64,000 nucleotides of DNA from Blasia pusilla. Its lineage: Eukaryota. The notes below the pieces were generated by a model. That model ran no database searches and was not told the DNA's origin. It saw only the letters and a program-made list of their open reading frames with translations. The stretch is taken from NCBI GenBank assembly GCA_050084515.1, contig CM114271.1:29202001-29266000 (forward strand), given 5' to 3'. This document shows, one piece after another, positions 41,504 through 64,000 of the stretch. The translations under genes were made by a program, and so were the position numbers. Numbering within the stretch: position 1 is the first letter of the stretch; each line of letters opens with the position of its first letter.

Positions 41504-44369
41504 TCGGGGTAAGAGCATATATATTAGGGTGGTGTGGACAAGGTTGCATGCGGATAAAATCTATGTATGGTCTAAGACTCTAAGTCCACGTTCATATGTC
41601 TGTCATATAAATGGACTTGCCTGTATGCAAAGAAAATTTTCTCACACACAAAAATTTCATACATCTATGCTTGCCTCCCGTACCGTGAAATGTGTCTCAT
41701 ACATTTTCCCATCTTCTCACCCATCTCCCATATGGCCCGTAATGCTCTCTCTTGACACCTTCATGCATTTAGCCCTATGAACTTGCTTATGAACATCATT
41801 AATACTAGTAATTAGCTATTAGTGTGGTGCACATGATTGGAGGGATAGAAATGAAATTAATCATTATGAAAATTGACATTCCAAACATTGAAAAATATTT
41901 TTTGAGAAATCTTTAAAGAAGGGAATTTTTTAGTATAAAAAATTTATATTAAGACTTTTCCAATTGGTTACTTTTAGAAGAAATTTCCAAAGACTTAAAT
42001 ATAATGTGAAAAACGTAGGGGTTGGATATTTTGATTGAAAAATTTCTAGTAGCAAAAGCTTGATATGAAAACATTTACATGTTAGATGTAGGAATTTGAC
42101 ATGAAAGTTTATGTTAATCTACCTTTATGATGTAATCAAGGAAAAACCTAGAATTTCTATTTTTAAGATTAAGGAGGTGTTAGGAGTTTTTATGGACCAA
42201 ACCATAAGACACAAGAATAGTTGAGATCTATAAGAATGGTATTGTCATAAAGAATATGGGATTGATATGCCCCAAAGCCTTGAGAAAAACATGAGAGACC
42301 CAAGAATAATTAACTAGGCTATGGTACTTGCTCTCTTCCTCTAGACCATGGTCTCATGGTATGGGTATAGTCATATTTAATAACCTATTATATCCCTTGT
42401 GACTACTAGGGAGACATAACTTAAATAGTTATTGTTCATTTTTTTGATGACAATTGAATATTTCCTAAGATACAAGTCTTACCTAAACTTTTTGAGATTA
42501 GATGGTTCCGATTTGTGAGGTCCAAAGTCTTTGTTCATGTTTCAAAATTATGAATCAAAATATTTGAAATGCTAGTGCAAATAATAGACTAAGTTCAATG
42601 GCAACATTTGCTTACCATACAATGCATTTTGTTACGATATTAATTATTATTTGAACATGAGTTTTTAGGTGGAGACTTTTACATTTACACCAAACTAGCT
42701 CTTAGTGATTTCAAACTAGGCCTAAGTAGGAATACTATTATTCTTAAAACTGTCCCAAAAAGCATAAATTCTAGGGTTAATTCTGTTTTTCCTTTGAATA
42801 ACACAAGTTTTTATGATATAGGAACAAATTTTTGGTCTATAATTTCAGGGAATACGTCTACACAATCATGAAAATGGCTGTAGACTAAACTAGCATGTTT
42901 CCGATGGGATGTACGCGTGACACAATTTCCTCAATAGTGGGGCCTTAAAAACAGGTGTCAAAAATAGTTTTTAAAAATTATACCTAAAATTTGAAATTAT
43001 ATTTTATTTCAAAATTTAACTATAATTTCCATAATTTTAAATCTTAAAAGAGGAAGAAAAATTAACCTTTAAATAATACCCATCCTCCCTAAATAATTTC
43101 AATCCTCTGTAAAAGTTTGAACAATAACGATTCTTCCCCTTCCACTCTTCCCACCAAAATAACGTTCACTAATTAAATTTTAATTAATGATATTATTTTC
43201 CATTCAAAATAATTTTTCTTTAGAAAATTATCACACGTGAATTAATAAGATTATTTTTTAAAATAATCACATTATTTTTTTCAAATATTAAATATAATTT
43301 CTATTTTCTAAAATCTTAGAAGAGTAATAATATTTCACTCTTATAAGTAATTACAATCCTCCATTAAGTGATATCCCAATCCCCTAAGTAATCTTACCCT
43401 TCCGTAAAATTTTAAAAAAATCCACTCCTTCTCCATGAAAATTTATTTTCTCTTTCCATTAAATATGAATTAAGGCACAAATTCTAAATTTTTGGTGATT
43501 TCATAATTATTCCAATTTATTAAATTTATAGTCACCCATTATAATATTAAATAATTATTATTTTTTCAATTTCATTCAAATCCCTATATGTTTTCTCTAT
43601 TCCTATCTATTTCTACCCATCTAATGTGGCTCAAACAAAAAAATTCAAACATGTTGCCTATTTTGTCTTATTATCTCACTATCTTGTCGTATTATGCATA
43701 TGGGGTCGCCAATTATTACATAAATTGGCATTACAAGATTAATAGACGTCTATTTAGTCTAAATTCATAATAAGATTGTCTTGTCTATATTGTCTTGTCT
43801 ATACCTTGAGCTGCAAATAATGAGATGCGGACCTGGATGTCCAAGATTCATTTACAATAATTGCGATCAAATTTTGTAAGGCTCATCTCGCAATCGGGTC
43901 TAATCATAAGGCACCATGGATGGTCCTTATAATCGGACCTAAAACTTTCCTTATTAGAGAATTCATTACCTAAGTGTGATCACCTCTTCCTCATGAATCC
44001 ACTTTATTAGAAAAGAAACCCTCAAAAGAGGAAAAAGAAAGGCAATAACATTGTAAGAAGGGATGGAATCAAGAAATGCAAAACGAAAATGGCAACAAGC
44101 CAACACAAAAACCAACTCAATGAGCTACATGATTAATAACTTGAAACAAATTTAACAAGAACAGTAATGGATAGTAGTGGTTGGTCAAACGTGAATAGAC
44201 GGTGACGTGAATGCCTACCAAAACCCCCCTCAAATGACTTTGGCTCATTGTATTAATGCCAAAGCTTGTGTCTCTTAGTCCTTCCTTTTCTACGTAGAAA
44301 ACATAGAAAAGGAAGGACTAAGAGAAGTGGCAAATGAAAAATCTCGAGTGAATATCAAGCGCATGTTTT

Positions 44370-44537
44370 CAGAAAAATATCAAAAGACACGTATAAGTGC
44401 CCAAATACTTCATGTGTAAAAAGACCTTTAGTATGTGCAACCCTACGTACAAAGTCAGAAAAAAAAATATCAAAAGACACATATAAGTGCCCAAATACTT
44501 CCAATGTGAAAAGACCTTTAGTATGTGTAACCCTAGT
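44370..44537. repeat. Tandem duplication of ~85-bp unit
   Basis: AAAATATCAAAAGACAC(G/A)TATAAGTGCCCAAATACTTC...AAAAGACCTTTAGTATGTG occurs twice. Confidence 0.85.
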
Positions 44538-45024
44538 AAGACGCGTTGAACCAATCAAATTATTTAATAAATAAATTTATATATACCTGGCTTGACCTCT
44601 AAATTATAGATATATAGAAAAATATATCTATAACTCATATATCGTCTTCTTCGCTTACTGGATTCTTTTTCCATTTTTTTGCATGAGTCGACGTTCCCAA
44701 TTAAGCTTCCGGAAAGAAAGATCTTAGATCCGGAAGGGTTAGGCCCTTGCACAATTAGCTGATTACTCAGCTGGTATCTGTGTAGAGTGCCCCACAATCT
44801 TCCACATATATATATATATCCCACCTTAAACAATCAAGTCTTCTATGAAAAGAAAGAGGGATGTATACTACACTTCGATAATTGTGACTAAGATTGGGTT
44901 GAAGTTGCCTCAATTTCCAAAGGTATTTAAATCCAGGGCGGAATCCTCGGCTCAACTAATATTCCCTTTTGAAAGATATAGATTGACAAAATTTAATATA
45001 ATTAAAAGTGCTGTGTTGTCATCT

Positions 45025-45097
45025 TCCGTAATAGTCTAGATGGTTAGGATACCTGGCTTTCACCCAGGCGACCCGGGTTCGAGTCCCGGTTACGGAA
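45025..45097 (+). tRNA. trnE-TTC: tRNA-Glu (anticodon TTC)
   Basis: Acceptor stem TCCGTAA/TTACGGA, anticodon arm CCTGG-CTTTCAC-CCAGG, T arm GGTTCGAGTCC; eukaryotic cytosolic type. Confidence 0.96.
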
Positions 45098-45103
45098 ATG
45101 GAA

Positions 45104-45108
45104 GCGGG

Positions 45109-45151
<43 letters not shown>

Positions 45152-45176
45152 GCGTGTTCGATCCACGCTCACCGCA
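45104..45176 (+). tRNA. trnF-GAA: tRNA-Phe (anticodon GAA)
   Basis: GCGGGGATAGCTCAGTTGGGAGAGCGTCAGACTGAAGATCTGAAGGTCGCGTGTTCGATCCACGCTCACCGCA, the canonical plant cytosolic tRNA-Phe; TTTT follows at 45188-45191. Confidence 0.97.
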
Positions 45177-45387
45177 AGTATGTCACCTTTTGGAAATCTA
45201 ATTCCTGTCTGTGTTTGGTGGCGTCGGTTAGCAGCGGTTTGTCGAAAGATCTTGATTATGAGGTCTCTGATTGAGTCCTCCGCCTGAGTCGCCTGTTCGG
45301 TCTCCTGCCAGCGGAGACAGACTTTCATATAGAATTCGAAAGTGAGGGTACACGGGTCCAGGGTTTTGTGTCAGCCGGTCCTTGAAA

Positions 45388-45460
45388 GTGGGATAAGCTC
45401 AGTTGGGCATCGTGAAACGATTAGATGCGATAGGTGGGCTGTCGATCCGCGCTCGCATCG
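45388..45460 (+). pseudogene. Degenerate tRNA-Phe-like sequence
   Basis: GTGGGATAAGCTCAGTTGGG...TCGATCCGCGCTC resembles the 5' half and T arm of the adjacent tRNA-Phe; the anticodon arm is not recognisable. Confidence 0.45.
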
Positions 45461-47327
45461 GCCCTTTCGATCGATTTTTGAATCGGATGCAAAAATTTGA
45501 TGTTTGAAAGTTAGCTACTTTTGAAATGGACATAATCACAGATTCAGCTTTAAAATACACAGCGGGTTTTCAGAAGGTTCCGAAATATGAGAAATGTTCT
45601 TCTGAATGCTTGGAGCATTATTCAAGAACAAGCGGAGACATCCTACGAGTTCATAGAGAAAATGCAGGCACAGAGAAACACCCTAGAAGTCGTACAGAAA
45701 TCTATGACGTTTATCTGAAACGTATGACGGCACCTACCGGATGAATCAAAGACCGTCCAATCTTGTCGCTGGTCTCTCGAGTTGATTCACTTCGTTCGTG
45801 CCCGTGCCGTGGGATGCAGGGTACAGTTCTTCTAGATCTTCAGAGCCTGCATTACCGTCAGTTCCACGAACCAGTCGCAGAAATCCTCCAAGTCAATTGT
45901 GAAGTCAGAAGTGAAACATTCTTGTTCCGATCCCGTCAAGTTTAAGGTTCCTTTTCGATCACTGCTAGTACTCATGAGAAATATCAATAAGTACTTTCAC
46001 CATCGATTTCTTGTTTTGGGAAGTCGATTGTGATTCCTGATTGGCCCATATGTAAGGGTGCAGCTTTACCCGTAGCATCGAATGCTCTGTTCTCTTTGGA
46101 GTTATTCACAATCGAGCACGGAACCAAGCTACCCACATCAGGTGCCGCCGCCGGAGTAAGGATGACCAACTACTGACAACTGACGAATCTACGTGATTCG
46201 TTTCGGGCTGAACTCCGAGCATCTGCGTCGATCTGGACCTAGAGACGACTTGCCTTCATTCTCGAGAAATTAGTCTTGGTGCCTTTGCCAATTCGAAGGT
46301 TGTCGAAGGCGCGAACTCTTTGCAGTCATAACCGATCCACATTTGAAGTTCGCCACGTTCAGTTGCGCATGCCATCGTGACCTTTGGTAGTACCACACAG
46401 CGGGGAGAGGTTGTCTATATCGATGCATATCGACACGCAGGTAGGTACGCTCGGGTAACGCTCCACACATTAACTACATCGCGATCGTTGTGAGCAAATA
46501 AAATTCAGTTTGAATTCGAATCGGAGCGCCATCTGGAACCCCCGGTCTACTTGAGATCGAAGTTGGCCGGAATCCGTAGCTATGTGTCTGTCAAGTCCGG
46601 AGTCGTGAGTGCCTCGAGTCCTCTTGCTCGTGTACAGGATATCTATACGAGGATTTCTACAGACATACACTGACCATACTGTCCCCACATCTTTGCCGAA
46701 AGATCATAAACACATGTACAAAGCTATACATTCCGTATGTAAGGTATAACGTGGTAGTTCCTGTTGCTGCCCGAGGAATGTTCGTTCATCAGAGTCGAGA
46801 AGTCGATGTGGTACGGGAGGGTGGTTATGTGGGACAACGATTTTAACCCTCCATTGGTAAGGATTCATCGACTGGGACTCAAAAGTCGGGCACGTCGAAG
46901 GAGCTTCCGAGTTCATTGTGCACGGATGCAGAATTGAACGCGTCTACGTACGTTCATGCACCTGGAAATTAGCGTAGTTCTTTGTAGATTTATCGAGTTT
47001 TGTGTGGACTGTTGGGTGAACGAGCAGTCTAGAGCTTTGCCGTTTCAATACCTAGAGGTGTTATTTCACCGGCAGGCCAGCGCCGGATTTTGTCACGTCG
47101 TAGCGCGCCAGCGCAATTGCAAGAAGTTGGAGAGTACTTTCATACTCAATCTTCTGAACCCGATCGGATTCAAGGTACTGGTGACAGCTGAACAACTTTA
47201 GATCACTTGTATAGGATTGATTGTTACCCGGTTTAGATAAATCGTGCGACTGGACCATCTAATATGAGGAACAAATATATTAATATAGGTTGTGCTTAGT
47301 TTCCATGGCATGCGCTACGTTCTTTAA

Positions 47328-48338
47328 TTGGCAGCCATGCCTCTAGTCTCTCAAGAGTTTCAAAGTCTCAGCACGGAGCCTAGGGTGATGGATTTGACTA
47401 GTACTAGTGACCGAAGGGAACCTCAACGCAAGGAAAGGTTGGGGGTGAGTACGAGTAGTCGCACGGAAAATGAAAGCGATCGTCGCGAAGGATTGCAGAT
47501 GTTTTCCATGGCAGAGATGATCGGCTTTCTGGCGAGAATGAATCTTGGAGTGAACCGCAAACGGTCCGTGCGAGGTGTACATCCACCGTGTCTTGCTACG
47601 CATGGGCAATCCGATGAGCCTGCTCCACATGCCAGGACTTGTGCGAACTTCACGTCTCAGGATGCGATCACGCGCAAGTTGACGATAGTGCCAGGAACAG
47701 CTCGAGAGTACCCCGTCGACTGTTCCAATTCCCATTGCCATAATCTAGCTGATTCTGGCTGCAACCGGGTCGATGATGTGGGAACTCGAGCCTCAGCAGA
47801 GGAGACCCTCCTAACGTACATTATAGACCGACTCGACGGTTGGCAAGAGCATCTGTGTCGGCTCTCTAATGCGGGGGCCAATGCCGGCCTACACCTACCT
47901 GCGGTGGACGCTGCTTTGGTACAGCTCGGGGAAGAGCTCTTACTTATGAGGGGAAACCTGCGCACTCTCGCTGCTACAAGCGATACTTATTCGGTCACAG
48001 ATGGCCCGGAAGACGTCGTGTGTCGCTACATTCTTCTCCACGAGAGGTCCAGTACGTTCGTCTTCTCTTACGAAGAATTGTGTAGATACATGTCAAGTTT
48101 GTCGACTTGGAAGCTTTGCACCACTGCGGTACCTACTTCCCTAGTCTTCTGGCACTTTCATCATAGGAACGTTAACGGTCAAGTCATTGAAGAGCACGAT
48201 GCGTGTGCTGTATTGTCCTACAAAAACATCATGCGATTGACTAGGGGCGAAGCGTACAACTTCGTCGATGCTGTCAACAGTGTCGAAGGAGCTGTTATCT
48301 TTCGGGTCTTTGAGGGTGTTGTTCCCACTCCCCACTGA
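47328..48338 (+). CDS. Hypothetical protein, 336-codon intronless ORF (first ATG at 47337)
   Basis: Long uninterrupted ORF in a CpG-retaining island; no recognisable motif; followed by (CT)n. Confidence 0.5.
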   Translation: MAAMPLVSQEFQSLSTEPRVMDLTSTSDRREPQRKERLGVSTSSRTENESDRREGLQMFSMAEMIGFLARMNLGVNRKRSVRGVHPPCLATHGQSDEPAPHARTCANFTSQDAITRKLTIVPGTAREYPVDCSNSHCHNLADSGCNRVDDVGTRASAEETLLTYIIDRLDGWQEHLCRLSNAGANAGLHLPAVDAALVQLGEELLLMRGNLRTLAATSDTYSVTDGPEDVVCRYILLHERSSTFVFSYEELCRYMSSLSTWKLCTTAVPTSLVFWHFHHRNVNGQVIEEHDACAVLSYKNIMRLTRGEAYNFVDAVNSVEGAVIFRVFEGVVPTPH

Positions 48339-48348
48339 TTGATCCTCT

Positions 48349-48353
<5 letters not shown>

Positions 48354-48379
<26 letters not shown>
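48354..48379. repeat. (CT)n microsatellite
   Basis: TCTCTC run immediately after the ORF stop. Confidence 0.9.
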
Positions 48380-51300
48380 ATGTATAAGTACGATCGCGAT
48401 GCAGGCGGAGGCTGGGGACCATCTTCATTATAGCTAGATCTACCAGCAAAAAGCTCATGGTAGCACTCTGCGCCACACTTGCAAGAAAAGATTGGGCTTG
48501 AAAACACATTTAACGATCGATTCTAGCTTGCTCGGCCGTAGAACTTCGAAATTCGAACCTAGATCTAACTCTATCAGAAGCTTCCATTCGCACTGTGAGA
48601 TAAATAGGGAGCGCTTTCTTAGATTGATACCGACTTGAGCATTTCAGATGTCGTGAATTAGATTCGTGCGTAGACTTATATATAATCATGATAGGTTAGT
48701 CGGAGCGGCTCGGATTAGATCGGACAAAAAGTTCACGAGATCTGAAATCCAAAAATTATCTGCCGGGACGTAGGGTATCTAGCTTGCAGGCACTTCGCTT
48801 AGATGTAGATCCCCAGTTCAAGAGTGTAGAATTGCAGGCTCAGATTACAAGTCCTACTTTTGGTCACTCCAAAACTTGTCCTTTGAGCCTTCGAAAGTTC
48901 AGTACTTCATCTCATTGCGTGGGAAAACATTTCCTTTCATTTCCATTTAGTTATTACATTGATCGATGTGTGCACATATATATTCATGAGCATGAAACAA
49001 TTAATGAACTAAAGATGATCGATAAAATGTGTAATACTTCCAAGTTCCTTAAGTTGTCGGCATTGCCGATTCTATTCCATTTGTAGCAGCTACAGCTCTC
49101 GTCCACGGAAGTACATATGGGGCCGTCATAGATATAGACTGTATTTTCGCAATGTGGGCTTAGTTTGCAGCTAAGTCCAGGGCTGACCACTATCGTACGT
49201 TATCAGAAGGCATAAAGATCGTGCCAGACTAGAGAACGTTAAGGAACACTAGTGCGTAAGTGAGGTCTTGCAGAGTATGAATACATCTAAAATAAGAATA
49301 TATACACTGTCGGTCCCTCCCTACTTTATGGCCGACCCAGCTGGACGGATTAGTCTCCCAAACTGTGCCAGGTCGATCCGACGCTACCTCTTGCATGCAT
49401 GGAAACGCCATTATATATAGTGTCCAGTCGAGAGTACAGCACTGGCTAAGAATAAGCATAAGAGCTGTGTAGGATAACTTTAGGTCTTCGACAGAACTCA
49501 TATATGTAAACATTTATTTCAGAGATACACATGTTTCGTGCTCCATATGTAGATGACGTGCCGACGTTTAAAAACCTAGCTGTGACAAAAGGATGGTCCG
49601 ATCGAGAATGTTATCGAGTCCAAGTGATCTACCAGGCCGTAGTTGATCTGCAGGTGAGTTGATATAATTAACGTCGTTGGAACTCTTGGAAATCTATGTA
49701 CACGCCACTCGTTAGGTTAACTCCTTAGGACTCCTTGCTTCCAACCCGCGTGACATACAACGCATACAACTTTAATCATTAGGTTAAGAGTCTTGTTTCA
49801 AATCCCGTACATGCGACGCATATCAATTGGCAACAAGATCATGGCTAGCCATGATCTTCTAGAGTCTGGACTAATTATCCGTGTTGAAATTGTCTCCCTA
49901 TGAGAGGAACGTTTCGGAGAGCTTTCAAATTTGAATTACTGAAAATATTTTGAAACATGACTGAATTTAAAGAAATCTCCAATTGGTGAATTCATGTATC
50001 TCTAGAAATGTATTGTTTCTAGGACGGCTCCATTCAAATGTACCTCCGAGTCAGAAGAGGGTTCCGCATATCTGTTGTTTCCCTACGTACGCGTACGGAT
50101 TTAAGAATGCCAGAGTCGATATCGATCCGACATCGTTAGGTATATCTGCTCGCCTGTCTATATGCCGGCGCGTAGATATATCGACCGGCGATGGTTCCAA
50201 AGATGCGTTTGTCGACGTGCGCATGCTTTGCTCTCGAGCACTGTTGAGGACGGCTTGAATTTGTTACCCTACGATATCGAGTCATCGGCACTGCCCAGTG
50301 CGCACAGCTCTCAAAGCATGAGGGTCTGAATTCTACCAACTACGATGCGCGAGGTCCGGACGTTGTTTGACTCGCTTCTCTGGGACAAGTACGGCTGACG
50401 ATTGCTGATCCATAAGTCGTTAACTTGGATGTGTATATACACATCAAGTGAAGGGAGGTTCTGAAACCAACTGGCAGATAGATTCATAATCATATCATCA
50501 CATATACAACAGCGAAGAGAAGCATCTGCACCAAGTGTTCCATCCACAAAAATGCTCATGAGACGGGCCTGTACAGGAACAATATTTGACTTTTGGGGGC
50601 GTCAGTTGTCCTTCAATTGCATGGGCCGATCCTCGATAGGCTATCCCACCCAACTACAGTATCATCCAAATCCGGATTTTGAACTCTACATTCGCGCGTC
50701 TACAGCTCTAGCTCGTGGGTTCAAAAACCGATGGCAAGTGCCAGACAGCTAAATCGCGCTGCATATTTTCTAACGAGTAGTTCACAGGGGATGGGGTCTG
50801 CAAAGGACTTGGGTGACCGTCCACTGCTTTCATGAGTGTAGTGAGAACTGCCAAACTTGTCTAGAGTATACGGGCCGTGCGGGAGGACTACGGCCCATCA
50901 CTGTGAGTGTGCTTAACATTTACTCACAACACGACACACGACGCTTGGGTTGTATTATGGTTGTACATCCCCATGTCACTTAGACCAACAATAAGTGTTT
51001 GCAGGGGAGTCCGCAAAATGGAATAAAACACAACATCATTACATGTCCTCGTGAACTAATATTAGGTTGTTTGTCACTCCGGATGTACTATTAGGGTTAT
51101 TCAAAGCCATGAGCATAAAATATTGGGAAGTGTTACCAGGGTTGTTTATCCGGGGTTGCTTGCTTTCTATAGACTTTACAGAGTGTGATCGCACGGGCAA
51201 CTCGGAGGCGTAGTGCTATGCATGAGTAGCAAACACATGGGGGACCACCCCACGGTATGGAAAGTTTCAAAATTTGTTTGAAAATTTCGGCACGGTGTCT

Positions 51301-52399
51301 TGCATCTTCTCTAAATTTTGATCATTTATTATATTAAAGTTTTTATAGATTCTTTAGGAAAGAATTCTTCTTAACGAAGAAAAGATTATTTATACGAATT
51401 TTTCTAATATCCACATGGGTTTGTATATCCCATTTGGATTTTGGTTTTTTGTGTCAAAAGATCTAGGATGATATATCTAAGACAAGTTATTCCTATTTTG
51501 GGTTCATTTTGAATTATATAGAAAAACTAGTAATTGTTTCTTGTTAGTTTTTTTTAAACTAGAGTTTATTTAAAGTTTCTTTTTCGGGAATTCATTATCT
51601 TTTTGTTCAACTTTTTTTTCATGAGATTGAAGAATTATGGTCCTACTTGTCTTGTGAGTAATTCAAAATTTTCTTTAGGAAAGTGGTTTTGGTTTGACAT
51701 GACAAAGAGAGAGACATGTATGTAGTGTTGAAGAATTTTGACACAAGATTTTACAAATTTTTCGGTTGAGAATGAGAGCTCTACATTGTGGAAATTTTGG
51801 AAATTTAGAGCAAGAGCTTAATGTTGCTGTTGGTTTTTCAGTTTGGGGACCATGTTCCCTGTTCAACGACTCATGTGAATACTCACTAGAGAAAAGTTCT
51901 ATTGATTTGTTGTTCCTATTTAAGGATTTTTGTAAACTAGTCAAGCTCATAAAAGTGCATTATTGAAAAAATCTGGGCTTTGAGTATGGAAATAAGATCC
52001 ATCATAGAAGGGCTCTTGAGAGCACATATTAGATTAATTTATTTTTTAATTTCCAGATCTGAATTCTATGTGAAAGAAATCAGTATTGAAGTGTTGCCAA
52101 AATTTTGGTATATTTTAGGCCGCGAGATACATGAACACTATTGCCAACATCGGATTCAATCAATGAGAAATTCAATATTGAATTCATGATGATGAACATC
52201 CACAAGTCATGCAAATAGCTTGGCCAAAAAATTGCTATTTTGACATGTGGGCTCGAATTCATGGCCTTTTACACTAGGCTATCATACTAAATGGCCATGG
52301 GTTTGCTATTAATTTTTAAAAAAATCCATTCATTCTCTATTCCTCGCCCTCGGCATGAGATTCCCTTTAAGTTCCTTCTTTAAAGGTGCCTCATTTGAT

Positions 52400-53400
52400 T
52401 AGGACTCCACACTTTTCAGAGTGACTCCCCAATATTGGAACCCCCCTTAAATCCTTCTCAAATTACTTAGCTAAAATCAAGTGAGCAACATGTTTTACTT
52501 GATAAATCCTTAAAATTTGAAGAGGCAAATTTTCGTTGTGAATCTCAAGAATCTTCATGACATTTCTATCACCAAGAGGAAACCTCTATATGCCTTTGGC
52601 TGACCTATCATTATGATATTTCTATGCAAAACCTAAGTAATGAAATCATATCTTAGACTATGTTGACCGAGCTATATCCAAGAAAATTTTCCCTAGCGCT
52701 AAAATCATCTTTCTCTCATGGAATCACCATCTTCATGTTCAGCAGTTGGGTCAAGGTGGTTCCCAAGTGTCCATCTACATAGTTCGGATTACTCCATGTT
52801 GATTAGTGATACTCCTAACCATTCCAGCGCCTTAGGATCTAGGAAATTACAAGTTGCTCCCCTATCAATCAAAATAATCATAGATTTTCTTGCAATCAAC
52901 TACTCGACTAGAATTTGACCTTCAATAGCATTCTAATACTGTTTGGAGGGTCATCATCTTCCCTCAACTCATTTCTTGAAGGCTCTCTATCAATTATGTT
53001 GCAGGTAAAGGCATTAGCCCCCATTACTTGGTCAACCTCCATATATTTGGCCATTGATAATACTCGTTGTGGTGGCAGTTTGGACTTTCTCGCATTGGCT
53101 CTCATTGCTTTAGGGAAGTCTTGCTTGAAGTGGCTTGGATCTGTGCAAATATAACATTCTTCGGGTGCGGGTTCATTCGAGATCACTCCTTGCTTGGAAC
53201 TCGACGCTTTTTGGGTCTTGAATCTTTTGGGTTTTGACATCAGTTGTGGCCTAGTCTCTTTAAGTTTCCTCTTGTTAACCTTGCCATATTGTTCTTTTGC
53301 CTTTGTAGTAATTTTTGTGACTATCTTGTCTCTCTTTCCAAGACTCGGGTCCCTTGTTAGTAGTTGAGTCTCCATATCAATGGCGACCTTTAGCTTTGCA
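52400..53400 (-). mobile_element. Degenerate Ty3/gypsy-like gag-protease remnant
   Basis: Zinc knuckle CYICTDPSHFKQDF (~53110-53160) followed by protease-like IILIDRGATCNFLD (~52840-52885). Confidence 0.6.
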
Positions 53401-53977
53401 AACTTGGTTGCAAGAGTTGCACTCTTCTCCCTCGGTTTACTTTTCGATTAATCCAAGCCTGCGTGGGCCATCGGGAGACCCCAAACTCATTATGCATGTG
53501 CGGACATGTTTTTCCTATGGATAGAAAAATCTATTTTTGTCTCAATTTTTGTGCAACCTTAGGGGCAGTTGAAAGTCCGCCATTTTTGGTTTGTGGCTAT
53601 CTTGTAAGTATTGCTACCATTGTTTGTGCGACTATCCTAATTATGATTCTTGTGCCAATATTGAGAGCTGCGAGACAATTGCATGGGAAGTTGCGCTTTG
53701 CAGCTACCTTGTGGTTAATAGGCACAAGGTAAATAGCTTGCGAGTGTCTTTCAACTATGGGGACTTTCAAACAACATGTGACTATGAGAAATCGCAATTC
53801 ATACCATAGTTGCAATTGTGGAAAAAATCACAAGATAGTCGTATGATGTCTACTCACAAATCATAAGAACAAGATGGCCAAAATTTTTACTCAGAATACT
53901 CTTGAAAGCAACTAGAAATCCCTTGGAGTGCAAGGAAACCAAAAACCCGAATATTTGATATTTATTTTCAAAATTTT

Positions 53978-55393
53978 CTCAAAACTTCCGTATTGAATAT
54001 GTGATCTGGAATATTTTACTAAACCTTGGATGCAAGATAGGAAATTAAAGCATGGTTGCACGGAAACGAACTTGTCTGTCCATAGGACGGACAAGCTCCA
54101 TAGAATGGGAGCCACCATCAGAGAATCATCAGTCGTCGTGGAAGACCCTCCACTCTATAATGGCTCTTGACATAATGACTTATGTCTGTCCACATGGGCC
54201 CGTGTTCCTAAACCCTAAACCCTAAACCCATGACGTAGATCTAGGCTTGGCTAGCCCGCACCCAATCCATCAACCATGGTTGCACAAAAACGGACAAGTC
54301 TAGACATGTCCACGGACATGGATTGCAAGACATGGAACCCACACTTATAGTTCATGATGAAAGGTGTGGCAAGGACGAGTAGGGCAATAATGGGGGAGGG
54401 AGTGGAGGTGGAGGTGGAGGTGGAGGGTCCGAGGAAGAAACGAGAGGGTATGGAATACGAAGGATAGTGGGGGAAATGAGAAAGAAGAGGAAGTTGAGAC
54501 CCACATGGACAAGTCCTTCCATAGGACGGACATAAGTCCACGGATATGGACATATCTATGGACACAGACTTGATCCACAAGTAAGCTTACGAGCAACCCA
54601 ACACCGGTTCTTGTCATCCATTTTGCTGGCCCCACCAAACCTATGCCTCACTCATAGAGGCCCACATCGAGCACGCCTGGTCCACCCTAAGCCCCCGCAA
54701 GGCACGCACTAGCCCAAGGCAAGATTACATCAGGCCCTCAAGACCCGCACTAGGCGGGCCTTCCTGGCCTCACCACATGTCTTGTGTGGGCTAGTGGGAA
54801 CTTTGCCCCGGCTTAGGGCGGCCAAGCAGGCTTGGTGCAAGCTATGCGTAGACTGCGGGCCAAGAAAAGGCTCATAGCTTGTACACCCATTCCATCCGTG
54901 CGCGCATCCCTTAATCCGAGCACGTACCCATTCCCTTGCCCCAAGCTTGTGTGGGCTATCGGGTATCAAGGAGGGGAGGGAGCATGGTTGCACGAAAACG
55001 AACTTGTCTGTCCATAGGACCCATTAGACATGTCCGTCCTATGGACATACAAGTTCATTTCCGTGCAACCATGCTTTAATTTCCTATCTTGCATCCAAGG
55101 TTTAGTAAAATATTCCAGATCACATATTCAATATGGAAGTTTTGAGTATGGAGTATGGAGTCCACCTCCACTCCCTCCCCCATTATTGCCCTACTCGTCC
55201 TTGCCACATCTTTCATCATGAACTATAAGTGTGGGTTCCACGTCTTGCAATCCATGTCCGTGGACATGTCTAGACTTGTCCGTTTTTGTGCAACCATGGT
55301 TGATGGATTGGGTGCGGGCTAGCCAAGCCTAGATCTATGTCATGGGTTTAGGGTTTAGGTAGGAACCCGGGCCCATGTGGACAGACATAAGTC
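53978..55393. repeat. Large interleaved inverted repeats A-B-A'-B'
   Basis: A 53978-54093 vs A' 55031-55146; B 54177-54412 vs B' 55161-55393. Both are near-identical reverse complements; B contains (AAACCCT)n. Confidence 0.88.
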
Positions 55394-58300
55394 CGTGGAT
55401 ACAAACTTTGTCCATGTGCAATCTTGAAGGCAAAAGATGAGATGCATCCCCCACCCTAATGCATGGAAATAACCTCCTTTCTTGCCTTTCTTGCCCTTGC
55501 CCCTCCCCCTCTTCTTTATGACCGCCATCCCTCCCCAAAAGATATCCTTCCCATAGGACAATGGTGTGTATGAGATACTAGGAACAACGTCAAGAAGAAG
55601 TCACCATGTTGAAGGGTAGAAAGACTATGGCCAGAATTACATTACGTTGGATGTCACGTCTTTTAGGATAGATCGGTGAGATCTAGTAGAGCGCCTTCGC
55701 AAGTAGTGGAGGACAAGCTCAGGAGGTCGAGGATGACTTTCTGAGGCCGCGGGAAACCTGAGAGAGCAGGTTTCCCCTTCGTTTCGGCTCATTTGGAGCC
55801 ATATTGAGAAACTTACTATTTTAGGTAAGTACCATTTTGAGTATATGGTCGACTTTGTATTTTTGGTAAGTGCCCCTTGACCTCCTACATTAGGTCAAGA
55901 GCCAAAGAGGTGACTTGGGAGCATAGGTTACCATGGAGAGAGCTTGGGAGAGGGGAGGGGTATACCTCAAGGAGAGAGATCTTGAGAACTTATTCTCTCT
56001 TTGTTGAACCTCTTGGCATGAGGCAATGGAGCTATGGTCTTGCTTGCCTTGTGTGTGTAACCTAAGCCTCTCATTAGGAGAGTGGGTTTGGTTTGACATT
56101 GAGAGAGACATGTGAGACTGCACACATTTGAGAGCTATGGTGTTAATAGATTGGATCTTGATTTACAAAGAGAGAATGAGATGAGTGAGAGAGCTTCATG
56201 TGAGAGCTCGCTGGTCACTCACTAGTTTTTCAGGTTGGGGATCGTATTCCTCATTCAGCGGTTCATGGGAGTGCTCACTGGAGTCGGAGCCGCCCATTTT
56301 TTATATTTCCTTTGCCGATTTTTCGTGTGGAAGAGTGGCGCGCGGAAGCGCTGCCCAATTGTTGATAGGGATTGAGTATGGGGGCGAATTTCCCCATGCT
56401 CTCGGGAGCACCATGTAGCTTGCTGATTTTTATTTTCACAAGTTTTACATTTTTGTTGGGAGAAATCAGGGCGGAAGCGCTGCCAAATTTATGTAGGAGA
56501 AAGAGACGTTGGGCTTTACAATAGTCCCCGTTTTCGTGTCGAGAATCTTTCTTCGAGCAAGGGCGGGCCTTCTAGCTGCGGTAGATGCGGTCGATGCAAG
56601 GTGAACTCTCTAATAAGTTCTCCTTTTTCAATACAAAATTATGATGTACACTCTCCATTCTCTCACGCCAATGTATCACAAATGGAAGTCGAGGCGATCA
56701 CTTCTTCAGTAACATCGGACCCGAAATTCCTAACTATAAAATCAATATAAACTATTTTACGTTTGTACACGAGGAAGATAGCACAACTAGTGTTAAACCC
56801 TACTTGACCAGGCCTATTGACATCCATGGATCGCTATATAAGGACATACAAAGTACAATCCCATGTCCTTCCATATGTGACGATAGGAAGAATCACCGGA
56901 GTTGGAGTTTGCATGACCTGGTTCATGAACGCCTCCCCAAAGTGATAAACTAAATAGCGAGTGAACCAGTGCCTATCTACAAAGAGTACCTTGACATGGT
57001 AAGGATTGAGGAAAGGAAAGTCGGGCACAACTCGTGCTCCACCCCTATCCATGCTTTGTGGACATTCTCTACTCTCCTCAAGAATGGGTTTTGGCGGAGT
57101 TATTCTCCCAAGAGGGGTAATCCACTCTCATTGGGAAAGTAACAAGCCAAAACATCCGCTATTTTAGTATGACTAAACTCTTCTACGGTGACAAACCTCT
57201 CATCCCCCCACACACACACATCACACTCTAGAAACCTCTCGAAGAATAGACCATGATCAAGTTACTCTCCCAAGAGGGGTGATCCACTCTCATTGGAAGA
57301 GCAAGCAATCCCAAAGCCATACACTCAAGAGAGACACGAGAGACTCAAGATGTGAAATAGAAGGTGATGAACCCTTGAAGGTCCCTCCTCTTTATATACT
57401 CACAAGGGATCCACAAGAGTACGAAATAGAGCTTATCTTATCTTGTGCCACATGGCTTCCTCTCAAGGCTTAGCCAATCACATTTTGACACAAGTAGATT
57501 TCCTCTTATCTCTTCCAAAATATCCTCTTTTACCCACATGATATTTTCCAAATTACCCCAACTAACCTAGCCACCAACCAAGACTACTTTTGCTTTTCAT
57601 TAAACAACTACTTTACTTTTATAAAGTCATCTTTTATTTATTACCTCCTTTTCCTAAAGTTGGGCCCACATAAAAGAGGCACCATAAAGAGGTTTAAACA
57701 TAAGAATCTCCTTTTTCTAAGCCAATTTACTTAATACTAATGAAACTCTATCTAACACTTAATGACGAAAGAGTTTACACACGTTGATTTTACTATACGA
57801 CACCGTTAGTTTTTACTAGAATGTCCGATTCAAATATTTTTTGACGCCGTTGTAGATCGTAAAGCTGTGCACGCTGTGCAATAGACAATGTGCAATTTAA
57901 AGTTGCGAGAAAAAAGTTATGGTCAATCTTGCAAAATTGCCATTGCTAGGCAATTTTTAGGGTTAAATTGTTCAAACCCTAAACCAGCCGCCGTCGCCGT
58001 GACGTTCAACCATCACCATCAACAGTCAACCGTCATCGTCAATGATCCACCGTCCACCGTCGGCCACTGCCGCCGCCGCCGAGCGCTGCTCAGAGCCTCG
58101 TTTGGCCGTTTTCCACCCTTGGATGCCATTGCCGCCATTATAGAGTGGAGGGTCTTCCACGACGAGTGATGATTCTCTGACTTGCGCGGCCACCACGTAC
58201 TTTGTTTTGGCCGCCACCGTCATCGCAGTTTTGTCATCAACCAGTGATGGCAGGTGACCTCGGGTTATGGCGTTTGAGTTTTCATTTCATGCTGCTGTGT

Positions 58301-61300
58301 TGTGATTGGTAGCCGCTCGACGAGGATCGAGTACCGTGCCGTGACGCCCGTAGCCGCAACGCGTCGTCGATTGCCGCACTGTGCCGCTCGTGGTCGCACC
58401 GCACCGTCTCGATCATGGAGCCGCTCCTTCACTAAGGAGCAGAGCATGGGAATTTTTGATGCCGAGGGTATGCCACCGAGTGCCGCACCCTATTCTCGAG
58501 TGTCGTGCCGTTTGTAGCCGTTCCGTGCCGCACAGGACCGCTGGACCTGCACCGCACATCGAGGAGGTTTGAGCGGCGTTAGTTCGAGAGGAGTACAAAT
58601 TGCTGATTGGAGAAGTTGTCTTCACGACCAAGTTGGGATCGAGATTTGCACTTGCCGAGGAGCGATATCGACATTATTTTCAGGCTACCCATTCTAGTCT
58701 CTTACCCTGCAGGTGTGAGGGATTTCTAGGTATTGGAAAGTTATTTGGGATATTGGGTTTCGTGCTGCTGATGCTGAGAGCATCGATGATGTATGGGTTT
58801 AGTGGACTTTCACGGCTTCTTGTACACTACTTCAAACGTAAAGAAACGACACACCAAAAGCTATGACGCTAAGCTTCAGTGATTCATGGCCCTGATAGTT
58901 CGTAGCTTCATCATTCGTGTGGACTACTTGGTTCTTACATGTGTTTTTATGGTTACAGACAGCCCGATAAACAAGACTAATGATCGGAATTTCAATTGAA
59001 TTGGGCTAAATGAACTCCGAGATAGGTCGACTGTGGCACCACAAGCTCAGGGAGGATACAAGGAGGCCATGCCATAGAGACGTGCGACCGCTACGATTAC
59101 TTAGCAGCAACCGCTACGATTACTAGTTGGTCATGTGGTGGAGCCCATCATCAAGGTGATTGCAATCGTCAGAGTCATGGATGTGTGCCTCAGCATGGAG
59201 GAGGAGATGGTGCTGCACCAGGAGGTTATAAGTGTGACTATTGTCAGAGGTATGGTCACACACGTGCCAAGTGTTTCAGTTTACACCTTGAGTTACATCC
59301 GGACCGAGGGCCAGAGAGGGCACCAGAGCGAGTAGCCGGTCCAGGTGGGCCTAGAGATCGTGCACCAGGTGGTCCCGTTGGGGGACGAGGAGCTGGAGTT
59401 GCTCATGGAGGAGGTAGAGTCCCACCACCTAGACACGTCGAGGGAGACGCCGAGCGTGAGGCTGGGATGGTTGCTCAGATACAGCAACTACATGAGCAAA
59501 TTGCCGCTATGACATTGAGGTTACCCGATGCCGGATCCGTGGCATCGACATCATATGGAGCAGCCAGAGATATGGAGGATCCTAGTTGGATGTGCGGGGT
59601 TGCCCAGATGGAGGTCGCTATAGATGTGACGCGTGGAGCAGCCGCAGAGTTGGATCCACAACAAGGGGAAGCCACGAAAGAGACTAGACTTCCTCAGTCT
59701 TTCACGTTGTCCGAGGCGATGAGGACCCCATTGATGGGTCCTGATTAGAGTTCCTGGAGAGTTGGTGATGTTATTGGTGTGCAGGCACGGAGGGTAATGG
59801 GAGAAACAAGTGCGACGGCTCCTATTGTTGATGCTCAGGAGGAGCATGTGTCGAGTACGATGTTGGGGGCGGCCACGATGGTATACCGTGCTCTGCTATT
59901 TTCTGCTTCGGATGTTATGACATTAGGAGGTACATCCGTTGAGGTGTTTCGGCTGGCCACTATGCTATGTGAGCGTTGAGTTGGAGTTCCTGCATCACGT
60001 TCAGAGGTGATTGCAAAAGAGGTGATGGACCTGCCCTTGGAGCGGATGCTCAGGCCATCCACGTCAGATTAATGGCACGCTACGGTTGCTAGGATGGCGA
60101 AGATGCCCGCTAGACCCGCGATAGAGCGTGCCATGGCTTCTCTTGGTGTTGTGTTGTTGGATAAGCGGGACAGGTCTTCCAGTTGGTGAGTCCCGTAGGT
60201 AGAGCTTTTAGTCCGTAGTGCGTCTTGTTGCATTTAGGAGCACAACCCTTGATGTTGGGGAAAACGTCATTAAGAGGATTGGGCTTGACGAGAGCCGATG
60301 TGGAGCGTTGTCCATTCTGGATACATACATCCTTGGGTGGAGCAAATACCACACAGTATATCACCTGACATGAGGTCTTTGTGAGGATTTGCCCGAGACA
60401 TCCTACAGATGAGTACGTAAGATGTGCGAGCCAAGACGATAGTGACTGATGCAGAGTCCTATGACGTCTTGGTTGGTGGATCAGTGTTATATCCGATGGG
60501 GTTTTCCGTGGATTATTGGGAGGAGTCAACATCCAACAGACCAGGATGGCAGTCAGGTGATGGGCGCCTTAGCTCATTACCCGTTCGATTCACAGTTGCA
60601 GTGATCGAGGGACGGCCAGGAGAGATGGCGACCTTAGCAACATTTAGCAGTGCCATCACTTGGCCTAGTGATTTGATTGAGGGACATGTCCATGCAGAGG
60701 ATACTCCCGTTCATAACATTTCTATGGAGAGGAATGTCATGATAACCGCATCAGTCCGTGGAGGAGAGGTGCCGCTTTGGGGCTCGACTAAGGAGCTTCG
60801 ACGCTTAGCCATAGAGCATGTGCAGACCGTGTGGAGCGAGACGTTTGCACCAAAGTGTGATGGATCAGAGGAATCCCAGATATCCAAGAGTGCTGCTATT
60901 ACCCCTTTGGACACCACCCTGATTGTGTGGTGCATCCCAGAGAAGAGTATTCATATGTTGGATCTCTTTGGAGGGATCAACACTGGGTTAGCTACTGTTT
61001 TGTAGGCTAGAGTGCGCGTGCAGCAGTACCTGTATGTGGAGATTGATGATGTTGCAAGACGCGCTTCACTTGACCATGTGGCGTAGTTACACCTCCATTT
61101 TCCCGACTTATTGTCTGCGTCCGCCATTCAGGGTTACCAGAGCTCCCTACCGAGGGACATTTCATTGTTGGGGGTGCAGGACTTGGAGCGGGTAGGGACC
61201 ATAGACTTGGTCATTGCTGGTTGGCCATGTCAGGGCCAGTCGAGTTTTGGACGGGGTAGTGGATTAGCCGACTCTCGGTCCAGGTTGCTTTAGGAGATGA

Positions 61301-61503
61301 TGCGGATCTTGCGACACTTGCAGAAGCATCAGTCTCATCCTCCAGCATACATTCTGGAGAATGTACTGATTTTGGGCGATTTGAGGTCATGTGTGGTGAT
61401 AAGTGCACATCAGGTGCGCGCATGGATCCACCTGGCAGTTTTGTTGGATGGGGCAAGTGTGGGTTCACGAGCACATCGCCCGCGTCTTTGGTGGACCAAC
61501 TTG

Positions 61504-62650
61504 GAGCAGATCTTTGTGGGGCTTCCGCGCTTCTCCCTGCATAACCCGGAGACAAAACAAATTGGCCAGACAAAAGAAGGAGAAATGCTTAAAGTTTGGC
61601 GTCACCCTCAAATTTCATAAAGAATGTTAAATTAGCTATGGAAATTGTTTGTGGTCAAAAATTCATACAGACACGAAGTAGAGGTTCACTAAAGTATTCT
61701 GTAACTCTGCGAGTTGCTTATGTCGCAATTAGCGATTGGACCAATATTTCGCCAGATTGTGGCCCGGAAATAACATCCGTAATTGTGATAGAGCCCTTTC
61801 CAAGTCCTCTACCGTCGAGAAAGTAGAGCTTTAATCTGCGCTTAAAAAAAAAAAGAATCGCGGTCGGAAGCCGGAAAATCCGATTAAATCGCGAAAAGAA
61901 AAACCTGAATTTCCGTACCTAGCCCATTTGATTCAACGAAGAGTGTGGAGGGGACTCCAAAGCTAAAGCCGACGGTTTGCAGCTTGGACGCGAAAAAAAA
62001 AAGACCTCGTTTTGTGTTGCTAAGACATGCTTTGGTTCAATCCTTGGAGAGGGCCCGAAGACTACGCCGTGAAAATGGAGGATCCGGCGAACTAAGTTTT
62101 TGCCGTGTGGTGTCTCTCAAAAACATCCTTTTCATTTAGTAGATGGGCCCATGGCCTCTTTTGGGACGTATGCTCGGCCGAACCTTCGCCCCCCGTAGGG
62201 TCGCGGCGTCTCCTATGGCGGAGTGGCTGATTATCCCTATTAATCGGGCCATTTCCCAGCGTCTTGGCTTGCTGGTGTTGTCCCCGGTTCATAGTTGCCA
62301 ACCCAGGTACCTAATATGAGAGCAAGATGGTCCCTGCGACTAATGATCTTCTGCAAGTACATTCTAGTAAGGGCTCGTGATGCATGGCCCGACCCAAACC
62401 AAATAACAATCTCGGATTGAACCGATATTCCCAACGCGTGTTTGCCGTTCCACCAAGCGAGTCTTGGCTTTTATTAGGAATAGATTGAAAATGCGGATTG
62501 CGCTGCCCTTTTGCATTCCTCGGCCGTTGATGCATGGCATGGCTACACACGTGCTACAATGGCAATTACAATTGGAAGCAATCTTTGTTGGAGCGGAAAG
62601 ATTGCCTAAGTTGGATTGTTCTCTGCAACTTCGAGAACATGAAGTTGGAA

Positions 62651-62684
<34 letters not shown>

Positions 62685-62788
62685 AGTACTCGGGCTCTAA
62701 CTGCTTCGACAAGAAACCACACTCCACCATCATGAAAAGGCTGACGGCCTTGATAAAATGTCAACGGACCCTAGAACTGGTTATGAAA
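61504..62788. other. Mosaic nuclear insertion of mitochondrial DNA (NUMT)
   Basis: Contains an rpl5-like segment ([28 protein letters not shown], ~61600-61688), the cox3 N-terminus (VSQKHPFHLVD..PWPLLG, ~62112-62166) and a plant mitochondrial SSU rRNA piece. The other segments were not identified. Confidence 0.8.
62541..62698 (+). rRNA. rrn18: Fragment of mitochondrial small-subunit (18S) rRNA, pseudogenic, within NUMT
   Basis: GGCTACACACGTGCTACAATGGCAATTACAA...GGATTGTTCTCTGCAACT...TAGTAATCGCGGATCAGCATGCCGCGGTGAAT matches the plant mitochondrial SSU 3' region, with small deletions. Confidence 0.85.
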
Positions 62789-64000
62789 CATGAGGTGTTG
62801 CGGAGGGCATATGCGAGAGTGGAGCGTCCCTCCAATTTGTTGGTGGATTCTATATTGGATCCGGGCCGTCGATCACAAGCAGTGAGGCTAGATGATCGAC
62901 CGCCGTTGACTGTGGTCAACAGGATTGGCATGCCACGGGCAACCTTTCCCACATTGGTGAGTTTTCCCGCTTCCTATGCATTGAAGGAGGCCAGACCTAA
63001 CTTATGGTTTGGGATGACCAGTTACAGAGGTTGGTGGAGCCCAATGCCGATGAGGGAGAGCGAGCGATGGGATTCCCCACAAGAGTGACGACATCACAGC
63101 ACTTGCGTTGGTGATCCCCATGCCTACCGAGATAGTTGAGGCACTGGCTGGGGGCAAGATCCAAGGAGATCGACACAGCAAGGGTGATCAAGAGGTACAT
63201 CCTTGGACTTCTTTGGATGTTCTACAGGTATGCCAGGAGATGATAGCCACAACACTGAGCGTGGTTCTGAGTACTGCACATGGAGGTCCGATTTTGCAGT
63301 TGGCTGTAGGGGAGCACTTGAGTTTTGTTGTTAGAGATGGGGTTGCACCATACCACCAACACCCGCGTCGGAGAGTCCTACCGTAGTCATGATGGAGACT
63401 TGGGAGCCAAATATAGGCCCTAAGTTGATTGGAGGAGAGCGGCGCCGGATACACCAGTTCCTTACGAGTTATAGGAGGTATTTTGCATTTAGTATGGATG
63501 ATTTGGGTACGCTGAAGGGTCCAAGGATCCGCATTGAGTTGTCGAGTGACACGTCGATCTTCCGACAACCCTACAGGTACAGTGATATGGAGAGGATCTC
63601 GCCAAGAAGGATGTGCATGGCAACTGGATGTATAGGCGGATCTGTGGAGATTACCGACCTATCAATTGGCAGACAAAGTTCAATTGGTATGCCATACCCA
63701 CTCCTGAGGAGATCTTTGATGCGATTGGGCATGCAAAGGTCTTCAGTTCATTGGATTTGCAAGTCGGATACCATCAGCTGCCTATCAGATTGGGGAACAA
63801 GCAGACTCCACAGTTGCATCCACTTCCAATCATGGGTTTAGGTTATAGATGGAGTTTGGATTTTGCAGGACCTTTGCCTTTGACGTAGCGTCATAGTCGC
63901 TATGAGTTGGTGATGATCGAGCACTTTCTCAAAGTGGATAGAGTTGGTTGCATTGCTTGACAAGGCTAGTGAGGGAGTAGCGTATGCCTTCCTAGATCGG

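Follow-up and report, generated by a model that had tools for sequence, protein, structure and literature searches.

The last part of a 64,000-nucleotide stretch of Blasia pusilla DNA (GenBank assembly GCA_050084515.1, contig CM114271.1, positions 29,202,001 to 29,266,000 of the forward strand; the whole stretch is called the window below) is very probably (probability roughly 0.85) a decayed, 5′-truncated copy of a Ty3/gypsy-type retrotransposon (59128-64000) whose family encodes a DNMT3-like cytosine DNA methyltransferase (DNMT) between the protease (PR) and the reverse transcriptase (RT)-RNase H (RH)-integrase (IN) part. The window copy itself is dead and makes nothing: stops interrupt it at three places, its protease site is altered, its frame is shifted at least twice, it contains a 1.28-kb insert, and deletions have removed motif X, most of RT, RNase H and the N-terminus of integrase. 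An earlier note, made from the sequence alone, had already put its death down to three TAG stops, the insertion and an RT-RNase H deletion; these are all present and the further lesions are added here.

Methyltransferase domain

C5-methyltransferases share a series of motifs, among them I (FxGxG), IV (Pro-Cys), VI (ENV), VIII (RxR), IX and X. As the earlier note had read them, motif I, a motif II-like block, motif IV with its Pro-Cys, motif VI and motif VIII lie in one frame with the open reading frame (ORF) that follows the protease (Table 1): the stop-to-stop ORFs 60421-61005, 61087-61293 and 61294-61620 of the window's ORF list are all in frame 1 and are parted by TAG codons at 61003-61005, 61084-61086 and 61291-61293. 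The motif IX proposed there is found 3′ of the insert. Motif X is deleted in the window copy; motifs I, IV, VI, VIII, IX and X are all present in natural relatives. Aligned relatives have Q at the first two TAG sites (P0008 has G at the second) and W at the third. TAG is one C>T or G>A transition away from the relatives' codons CAG and TGG, and for this reason the three stops probably reflect the usual decay of methylated DNA.

When the stops are read through, the product (399 residues, X at stops) matches PF00145, the family against which the earlier note had proposed to check it, with 39.1 bits (E 7.9e-10) against a cut-off of 22; of the separate ORF pieces, a 68-aa piece alone is above the cut-off (22.5 bits). 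The read-through product matches 48 solved sequences at E ≤ 1, with DNMT3A at the top (1.4e-7, query 175-362 on chain 7-174), followed by DNMT3B (2e-6) and DNMT3C (2.9e-6). DRM2 (0.008), M.HhaI (about 0.01) and DNMT2 (0.04) match more weakly. There is no PWWP or ADD Pfam match in the window or its relatives, which has no bearing on the kinship of the catalytic domain.

A model (AF2) of the relative P0005 has a mean pLDDT of 75.8 with confident protease (about 85-232) and DNMT (349-675) parts, the latter mostly above 90; the linker is largely of low confidence and contains one helix. Foldseek with this model gives DNMT3A, 3B or 3C chains throughout the matches listed, with E down to 3.7e-17. 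The TM score, taken by target, is about 0.8 for chains that consist of the methyltransferase domain only and 0.4-0.56 for longer chains, and an Atlas structure search gives TM 0.75 to DNMT3A clusters. The DNMT3-type likeness that had been noticed in motif VIII is thus supported for the window domain by its sequence and, for a natural relative, by the predicted fold.

Relatives and element architecture

A word-indexed protein search with the DNMT part of the window found 20 proteins, all retroelement-like and none a host-type DNMT. Their labels are Marchantia polymorpha (12), Calypogeia fissa (1) and Sphagnum fallax (1), with six unnamed, and 16 of the 20 are 47-66% identical to the query. In Marchantia P0009, Pfam places the DNMT at 460-529, RVT_1 at 833-919 and RNase H at 974-1098. 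When an unnamed relative was used as the query, two Closterium proteins (P0288 and P0289) with the order DNMT-RVT_1-RNase H-rve were added. P0273 and P0097 are single ORFs that contain CCHC, Asp_protease_2, DNMT, RVT_1, RT_RNaseH, Integrase_H2C2 and rve in this order. A profile search covering 1.84 billion representatives gave 22727 matches at E ≤ 0.001, of which 741 reach E ≤ 1e-30; the top 150 are each below 1e-85. No Klebsormidium-labelled protein is among the matches of the protein searches.

The 291 fetched proteins were classed by phmmer with segments cut from stored relatives. Type B, with the architecture RT-RH-DNMT-IN(-PHD), has 205 proteins; A1 (bryophyte-type), with gag-PR-linker-DNMT, has 28; A2, with PR-DNMT-RT-RH-IN and without the bryophyte linker, has 26; 27 are DNMT-only fragments and five have no DNMT match. 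Where type-B proteins are named, they belong to the chlorophytes Monoraphidium, Haematococcus and Cymbomonas, and the group as a whole (P0021-P0272) is a large set of chlorophyte and environmental gypsy-like elements with a C-terminal PHD finger. Between the PR-DNMT-RT group and the type-B group the DNMT identity is 31-44%, with mutual E around 1e-30 to 1e-80. One 1974-aa RT-RNase H-integrase-PHD protein (P0240) bears the label of a 'Minisyncoccia bacterium' metagenome-assembled genome and is probably from a mis-binned eukaryotic contig.

The same domain order recurs in liverworts, a moss, Closterium and unnamed contigs, and the DNMT is therefore, as judged from the predicted proteins, a trait of the family and not a one-off capture. 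The family's presence in land plants likewise appears from the named relatives and does not depend on the window.

The family in host DNA and RNA

Four runs of the window's species were aligned to the window at ≥ 80% likeness: the DNA contigs X1 (13492 aligned; 1.78 million records) and X4 (11882 aligned; 1.96 million records), and the raw RNA reads X19 (2514 aligned; about 6% of the run) and X20 (2109 aligned; about 12% of the run). Contigs and RNA reads by the thousand cover the DNMT part, to a depth similar to that over gag and RT. The summed depths are not copy numbers, but the host clearly contains the family in many copies. Over gag, protease, DNMT and RT the RNA depth is 12-152 in one mate orientation and 0-12 in the other (about 10:1); if the library is of the usual stranded type, the family is transcribed in sense.

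RNA depth falls to 0-9 over 61505-62506, within the insert. The joint 61504 to 62788 is seen in six (X1) and eight (X4) contigs and in six (X19) and one (X20) RNA reads, and the joint 61504 to 62789 in 25 (X19) and seven (X20) RNA reads. Other host copies lack the insert. In X19, 1766 of the 2514 RNA reads are < 90% alike to the window copy; it follows that other copies are the source of the transcripts. The window is also unlike the other copies, and unlike most or nearly all of the reads, at the frameshift sites.

Conservation and phylogeny of the domain

Among the 17 A1 whole domains, motif IV is GWPCQG in 16 and motif VI is ENV in all. The catalytic Cys is kept in all motif IV forms listed. 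In pairwise comparisons of eight A1 proteins the DNMT is the most conserved region of ORF1 in 27 of 28 pairs; between P0011 and P0005, for example, identity is 74% in the DNMT, 54% in the protease, 47% in the linker and 29% in the tail. By these alignments the domain is more strongly conserved than protease, linker and gag.

An unrooted IQ-TREE phylogeny (quick, LG+G4) was made for 69 DNMT domains with no host DNMT among the rows: 33 of 40 type-A whole domains (seven near-duplicates were left out), 31 of about 190 type-B rows (a spread sample, the named rows and those nearest to A), four DNMT-only rows and the N-terminal half of the window domain. All B rows lie on one side of a single branch (SH-aLRT 95), with the window, every A row and one DNMT-only fragment on the other. 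The window falls in an eight-row set (SH-aLRT 100) with three Marchantia rows, Calypogeia and three unnamed rows, and its highest identity in the tree set is 68%, to P0005. FastTree with 99 rows places the window in the same way with weaker support for the A group (89). A grouping of the A rows and the window without the DNMT-only fragment P0110, which lies within the A side of the free tree, is not rejected by the approximately unbiased (AU) test (p 0.164), an outcome that is uninformative. Because the trees are unrooted and contain no host DNMT, a single capture and two captures for A and B look alike in them.

Organization of the reading frames

The earlier note had the enzyme made within the polyprotein of the element. 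That it is element-encoded stands; one continuous polyprotein seems not to hold for the bryophyte subgroup. Because 13 of the 17 A1 whole-domain proteins stop 63-187 aa past the DNMT without RT, one subgroup with a conserved end, the bryophyte-type enzyme seems from these protein ends to be the end of a gag-PR-DNMT ORF1 and not to lie inside one continuous polyprotein. Of the other four, two Marchantia gene models continue into RT and two are cut short. In the A2 proteins a single ORF extends through integrase. The frame of the ORF1 tail closes in the window at TAG 63384-63386, and the RT frame, open from 63335, overlaps it in the -1 frame.

In an intact bryophyte-type element the DNMT would accordingly be made as the C-terminal part of ORF1, and RT-RH-IN would be read from the overlapping -1 frame by frameshifting. 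The enzyme may be catalytically active, and it might, for the element's benefit, act either on the element's own DNA (complementary DNA or a newly inserted copy) or on chromatin close by.

Comparison with known systems

Elements of this kind have been known since 2018, and the window's family adds a member and broadens the host range. The main text of de Mendoza et al. (2018; PMC5890265) describes KnitGypsy-Dnmt3 of Klebsormidium nitens, the only gypsy-DNMT3 host described there. Both systems are LTR/gypsy-type elements of streptophytes with an unrearranged DNMT3-type domain in the coding region. In each system this domain keeps its key catalytic residues and is under constraint (Ka/Ks < 0.2 for KnitGypsy; PMC5890265; here the 27 of 28 pairs above). 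They differ in their hosts, which here are liverworts, a moss, Closterium and the window's host. The comparison is with a main-text description that gives no position for the domain, and a match in lineage or architecture is not implied.

The chlorophyte RT-RH-DNMT-IN-PHD elements are a large family that has the same RT, RNase H and integrase families and a related DNMT (31-44% identity). In contrast to the window's family their DNMT lies after RNase H and before integrase, they have a C-terminal PHD finger, the motif IV Pro is often Glu, and in the DNMT tree they are separated from it by the main branch (SH-aLRT 95). Animal DNMT3A/3B/3C are the top sequence and fold matches among solved structures (TM about 0.8, 20-24% identity) and have motif VIII AHRxR..W.N in common with the element enzyme, which is without PWWP or ADD, is embedded in a retroelement and is only about 22% identical to them. 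SymbioDIRS-Dnmt3 and SymbioLINE-Dnmt of Symbiodinium are also retrotransposon-encoded cytosine methyltransferases, but they belong to a tyrosine-recombinase DIRS element and a LINE of another eukaryotic supergroup; according to the main text, SymbioDIRS-Dnmt3 methylates CG de novo in yeast (PMC5890265).

The available part of a 2026 preprint (10.64898/2026.05.21.726589) gives the known transposon-borne DNMTs as those of Symbiodiniaceae and of 'streptophytes (Gypsy-DNMT3)', and describes a different, DNMT4-like module in elements of Cymbomonas. In the accessible text of Schmid et al. (2018; PMC5784723) the five DNA methyltransferases of Marchantia are MET, two CMT and two DRM, none of the DNMT3-like element type. 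No published report of gypsy-DNMT3 in bryophytes or land plants, or of the chlorophyte type-B group, was found in a search that did not extend to subscription journals and supplements.

Alternative explanations and role of the enzyme

Several observations weigh against the reading given above or against parts of it. No LTR-like direct repeat is present within 50000-64000, and the copy is without its 5′ end and runs past the window at 64000. The two-ORF model is based on the ends of database proteins and the frames of a decayed copy, and no slippery heptamer was seen by eye in 63335-63386. Sense transcription depends on the library type assumed, and transcription holds for the family, not for the window locus. 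As for activity, motif IV is GWECQG in 15 of 23 A2 rows; in type B the commonest forms are GWECQD (67 of 191 rows) and GWPCQD (62 of 191), with Pro changed to Glu in at least 67 of the 191 rows. The A2 and type-B enzymes with this change may or may not be catalytic. The KnitGypsy-Dnmt3 domain gave no methylation in yeast, a result that the authors call inconclusive in the main text (PMC5890265).

A host DNMT3 fragment could lie within, or have been transduced by, a single gypsy copy whose family has no methyltransferase; the locus is heavily rearranged and holds organelle DNA, so that chimerism does occur there. Such a one-off event is extremely improbable in view of the PR-DNMT-RT order in the same place in 12 Marchantia, one Calypogeia, one Sphagnum and two Closterium proteins and in ORFs of unnamed contigs, of the host contigs and RNA reads that cover the DNMT at gag- and RT-like depth, and of the lack of any host-type DNMT among the 20 matches of the protein search. 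It could be argued that the relatives are annotation fusions of neighbouring genes, but the single-ORF metagenome proteins P0273, P0097, P0276 and P0277 speak against this. That the domain is element-encoded, as the earlier note had it, is the reading we keep. A separate matter is whether the bryophyte/zygnematophyte and the chlorophyte elements took up DNMT3 independently from host genes, in which case nothing would have 'persisted' from an algal element. The position of the domain differs between the groups, the DNMT tree splits exactly by architecture, and recurrent independent capture is the published pattern, as far as the consulted parts of both sources go (PMC5890265; 10.64898/2026.05.21.726589); on the other hand, the DNMTs of the two groups match each other at the E values given above, as against 1e-7 for human DNMT3A, and the RT and integrase of A2 are closer to the type-B query segments than to the bryophyte ones. 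We regard independent uptake as somewhat unlikely. A tentative proposal, which taken as a whole is also rather doubtful, is that these Ty3/gypsy elements form one ancient clade spanning the Viridiplantae, which has had a DNMT3-type enzyme since before the chlorophyte-streptophyte split, that the module shifted once, so as to lie after RNase H in chlorophytes and in the protease/RT interval in zygnematophytes and bryophytes, and that the lineage is still transcribed in bryophytes, Marchantia polymorpha included, with the enzyme made at Gag levels at the end of the gag-PR-DNMT ORF1.

The domain might instead be kept for a non-catalytic or non-DNA role, such as chromatin tethering of the pre-integration complex, nucleic-acid binding in the particle or RNA methylation. 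The frequent Pro to Glu change in the sister groups, the inconclusive yeast result for the Klebsormidium domain (PMC5890265, main text) and the PHD finger, a chromatin reader, that the chlorophyte sister group adds are in accordance with such a role, whereas the retention of the catalytic Cys, ENV and the motif VIII arginines in nearly all rows and of Pro-Cys in 16 of 17 bryophyte-type domains, the confident model of the whole catalytic fold including its SAM-binding half, and the CG methylation by SymbioDIRS-Dnmt3 domains in yeast (PMC5890265, main text) speak against it; we consider it unlikely. For the function of the enzyme, self-methylation of the element's DNA is a real possibility at somewhat less than even odds, and a targeting, binding or other non-canonical role is less probable than that.

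Anatomy of the window copy

The map of the copy (Table 1) was made by tblastn with natural relatives, and its order is collinear with gag-PR-DNMT(-RT) proteins. The claim that the domain lies downstream of the gag knuckle and protease and upstream of RT and integrase is borne out by this collinearity, and so is the Ty3/gypsy gene order: gag knuckle, PR, (DNMT), RT fragment and integrase core, with integrase after RT.

Table 1. Positions of the features of the element copy in the window
Feature	Positions	Strand	Frame	Basis and remarks
gag, C-terminal part	59128..59748	+	1	tblastn; match of Marchantia P0011 begins at aa 303 = 59128
CCHC knuckle of gag, CDYCQRYGHTRAKC	59233-59274	+		
Protease region	59815..60410	+	1, then 3	tblastn; core 60150-60410 in frame 3
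Protease active-site block, LLHLGAQPLMLGK	60225-60263	+		LLDSGAQPLMLGK in relatives (LLHLG vs LLDSG)
Frameshift	60419..60422	+		two extra bases vs other copies; parts protease core from downstream frame
Protease C-terminal part and linker to methyltransferase	60436..60960	+	1	tblastn; SYDVLVGGSVLYPMGF at 60457-60504
DNMT3-like C5-methyltransferase domain, motifs I to VIII	60961..61503	+		Pfam, solved-sequence match, motif positions; TAG at 61003, 61084, 61291
Motif I, DLFGG	60961-60975	+		
Motif II-like, YVEIDD	61033-61050	+		
Motif IV (Pro-Cys), GWPCQG	61219-61236	+		
Motif VI, ENV	61357-61365	+		
Motif VIII, RAHRPRLWWTNL	61468-61503	+		
Insertion private to the window copy, organelle-derived	61504..62788	+		Rfam, joints skipping it, CpG o/e, contig depth
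Target-recognition region and motif IX	62789..63096	+	2 to 63004; 1 in 63004-63096	tblastn
Target-recognition block, FPTLVSFPASYA	62945-62980	+	2	
Motif IX, EPNADEGERAMGFP	63037-63078	+		3′ of insert
ORF1 tail	63081..63386	+	3	tblastn to 63227; frame ends at TAG 63384-63386
RT lead-in and RT fragment	63395..63804	+	2 (63395-63595); 1 (63601 to about 63800)	tblastn
RT block, KKDVHGN..DYRPIN	63604-63666	+		
RT block, FSSLDLQVGYHQLPI	63742-63786	+		
Integrase core fragment	63805..64000	+	1 and 2	tblastn to P0024 and rve region of P0023; continues past window
Integrase block, GYRWSLDFAGPLP	63841-63879	+		
Integrase block, WIELV..AYAFLDR	63935-64000	+		

For aa 1-302 of gag, tblastn finds no match in the window at E < 0.1 and nothing credible at E ≤ 10. 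The active site of the protease is H-L-G in the window copy and D-S-G in the relatives, and the letters of the window at 60231 and 60235 are not those of nearly all RNA reads and other genomic copies. TLDVGEN in frame 2 was considered as the protease active site and rejected; tblastn puts the site in frame 3 (60225-60263). At 60419-60422 two letters are skipped by 47 and 50 of 56 X19 reads and by 40 of 41 X20 reads. Reads also skip two letters at a second frameshift at about 63003, where the window has two extra bases.

Near 63093 a deletion of about 52 aa takes out motif X (aa 838-890 of P0008 are without a counterpart by tblastn), and 42 X19 reads have loose ends before this position. About 30 aa are deleted at 63595-63607; loose read ends lie at 63595, 63607, 63756 and 63804. 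The remainder of RT, RNase H and the N-terminus of integrase are deleted. A three-frame read-through of 58000-64000 gives PF00145 and a sub-threshold zinc finger as its only Pfam matches, and no RVT_1 or rve, because the RT and integrase remnants are too short; these are recognized through the relatives only. The Sphagnum fallax gene model P0024 also joins an RT fragment straight to an integrase core, at another junction; this could be a similar internal deletion or an artefact of the intron model.

The bounds of the insert given by the earlier note (61504-62788) are borne out by tblastn and by the reads and contigs that pass over it. Rfam places a bacterial-type (organelle-type) small-subunit (SSU) rRNA fragment at 62519-62694 (66.5 bits, gathering score 50). 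The ratio of observed to expected CpG (CpG o/e) is 1.00 in the insert and 0.60-0.67 in the element, and the few insert contigs in the host DNA runs have depths of about 180-460, compared with about 2-8 for each listed element contig. Relative to the insert (62582-62695), the high-depth contigs of X1 and X4 have six insertions and a single deletion in a span of about 70 bases. The contigs extend into the 3′ domain of SSU rRNA past 62695, whereas the insert turns unrelated at 62696-62788. In view of the SSU fragment, the CpG o/e, the contig depth and the indels, the insert is a decayed copy of organelle DNA.

Neighbouring sequence

Elsewhere in the window, 44001-52000 is an 8-kb segment with CpG o/e of about 0.94-1.02, compared with 0.4-0.8 in other parts, which may be a second organelle-derived insertion. 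It holds a tRNA-Glu(UUC) and a tRNA-Phe(GAA), 5 bases apart (45024-45176). ORF translations, judged by eye only, suggest LINE-like RT ORFs, a copia-like element (DSGASNHM, YVDDLL), a 522-aa hAT-like transposase ORF and a long proline-rich ORF, perhaps of a formin-like gene, in 4700-7500, 27284-29682, 32826-34394 (minus strand) and 15976-21967.

Significance

That retrotransposons carry an enzyme normally used for silencing them is a paradox. The sole plant-lineage case in print is that of Klebsormidium, with an enzyme that was inactive in the one assay tried, according to the main text (PMC5890265). Such elements are now seen at a dozen loci of Marchantia polymorpha, where they are annotated 'hypothetical protein', and in a moss, another liverwort and Closterium, which moves the question of the enzyme's benefit to the element into a genetically tractable land plant. 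The signs of function are that the family is high-copy and transcribed in the host and that no other part of ORF1 is as well conserved as the DNMT. These elements can make tallies of 'DNMT3 genes' for algal and bryophyte genomes too high, and metagenome bins can hold them, as the match labelled Minisyncoccia bacterium illustrates. If the tentative proposal of one Viridiplantae-wide clade were true, the elements would supply de novo methyltransferase activity, so far hidden, to genomes for which the published list of such enzymes has none of this type.

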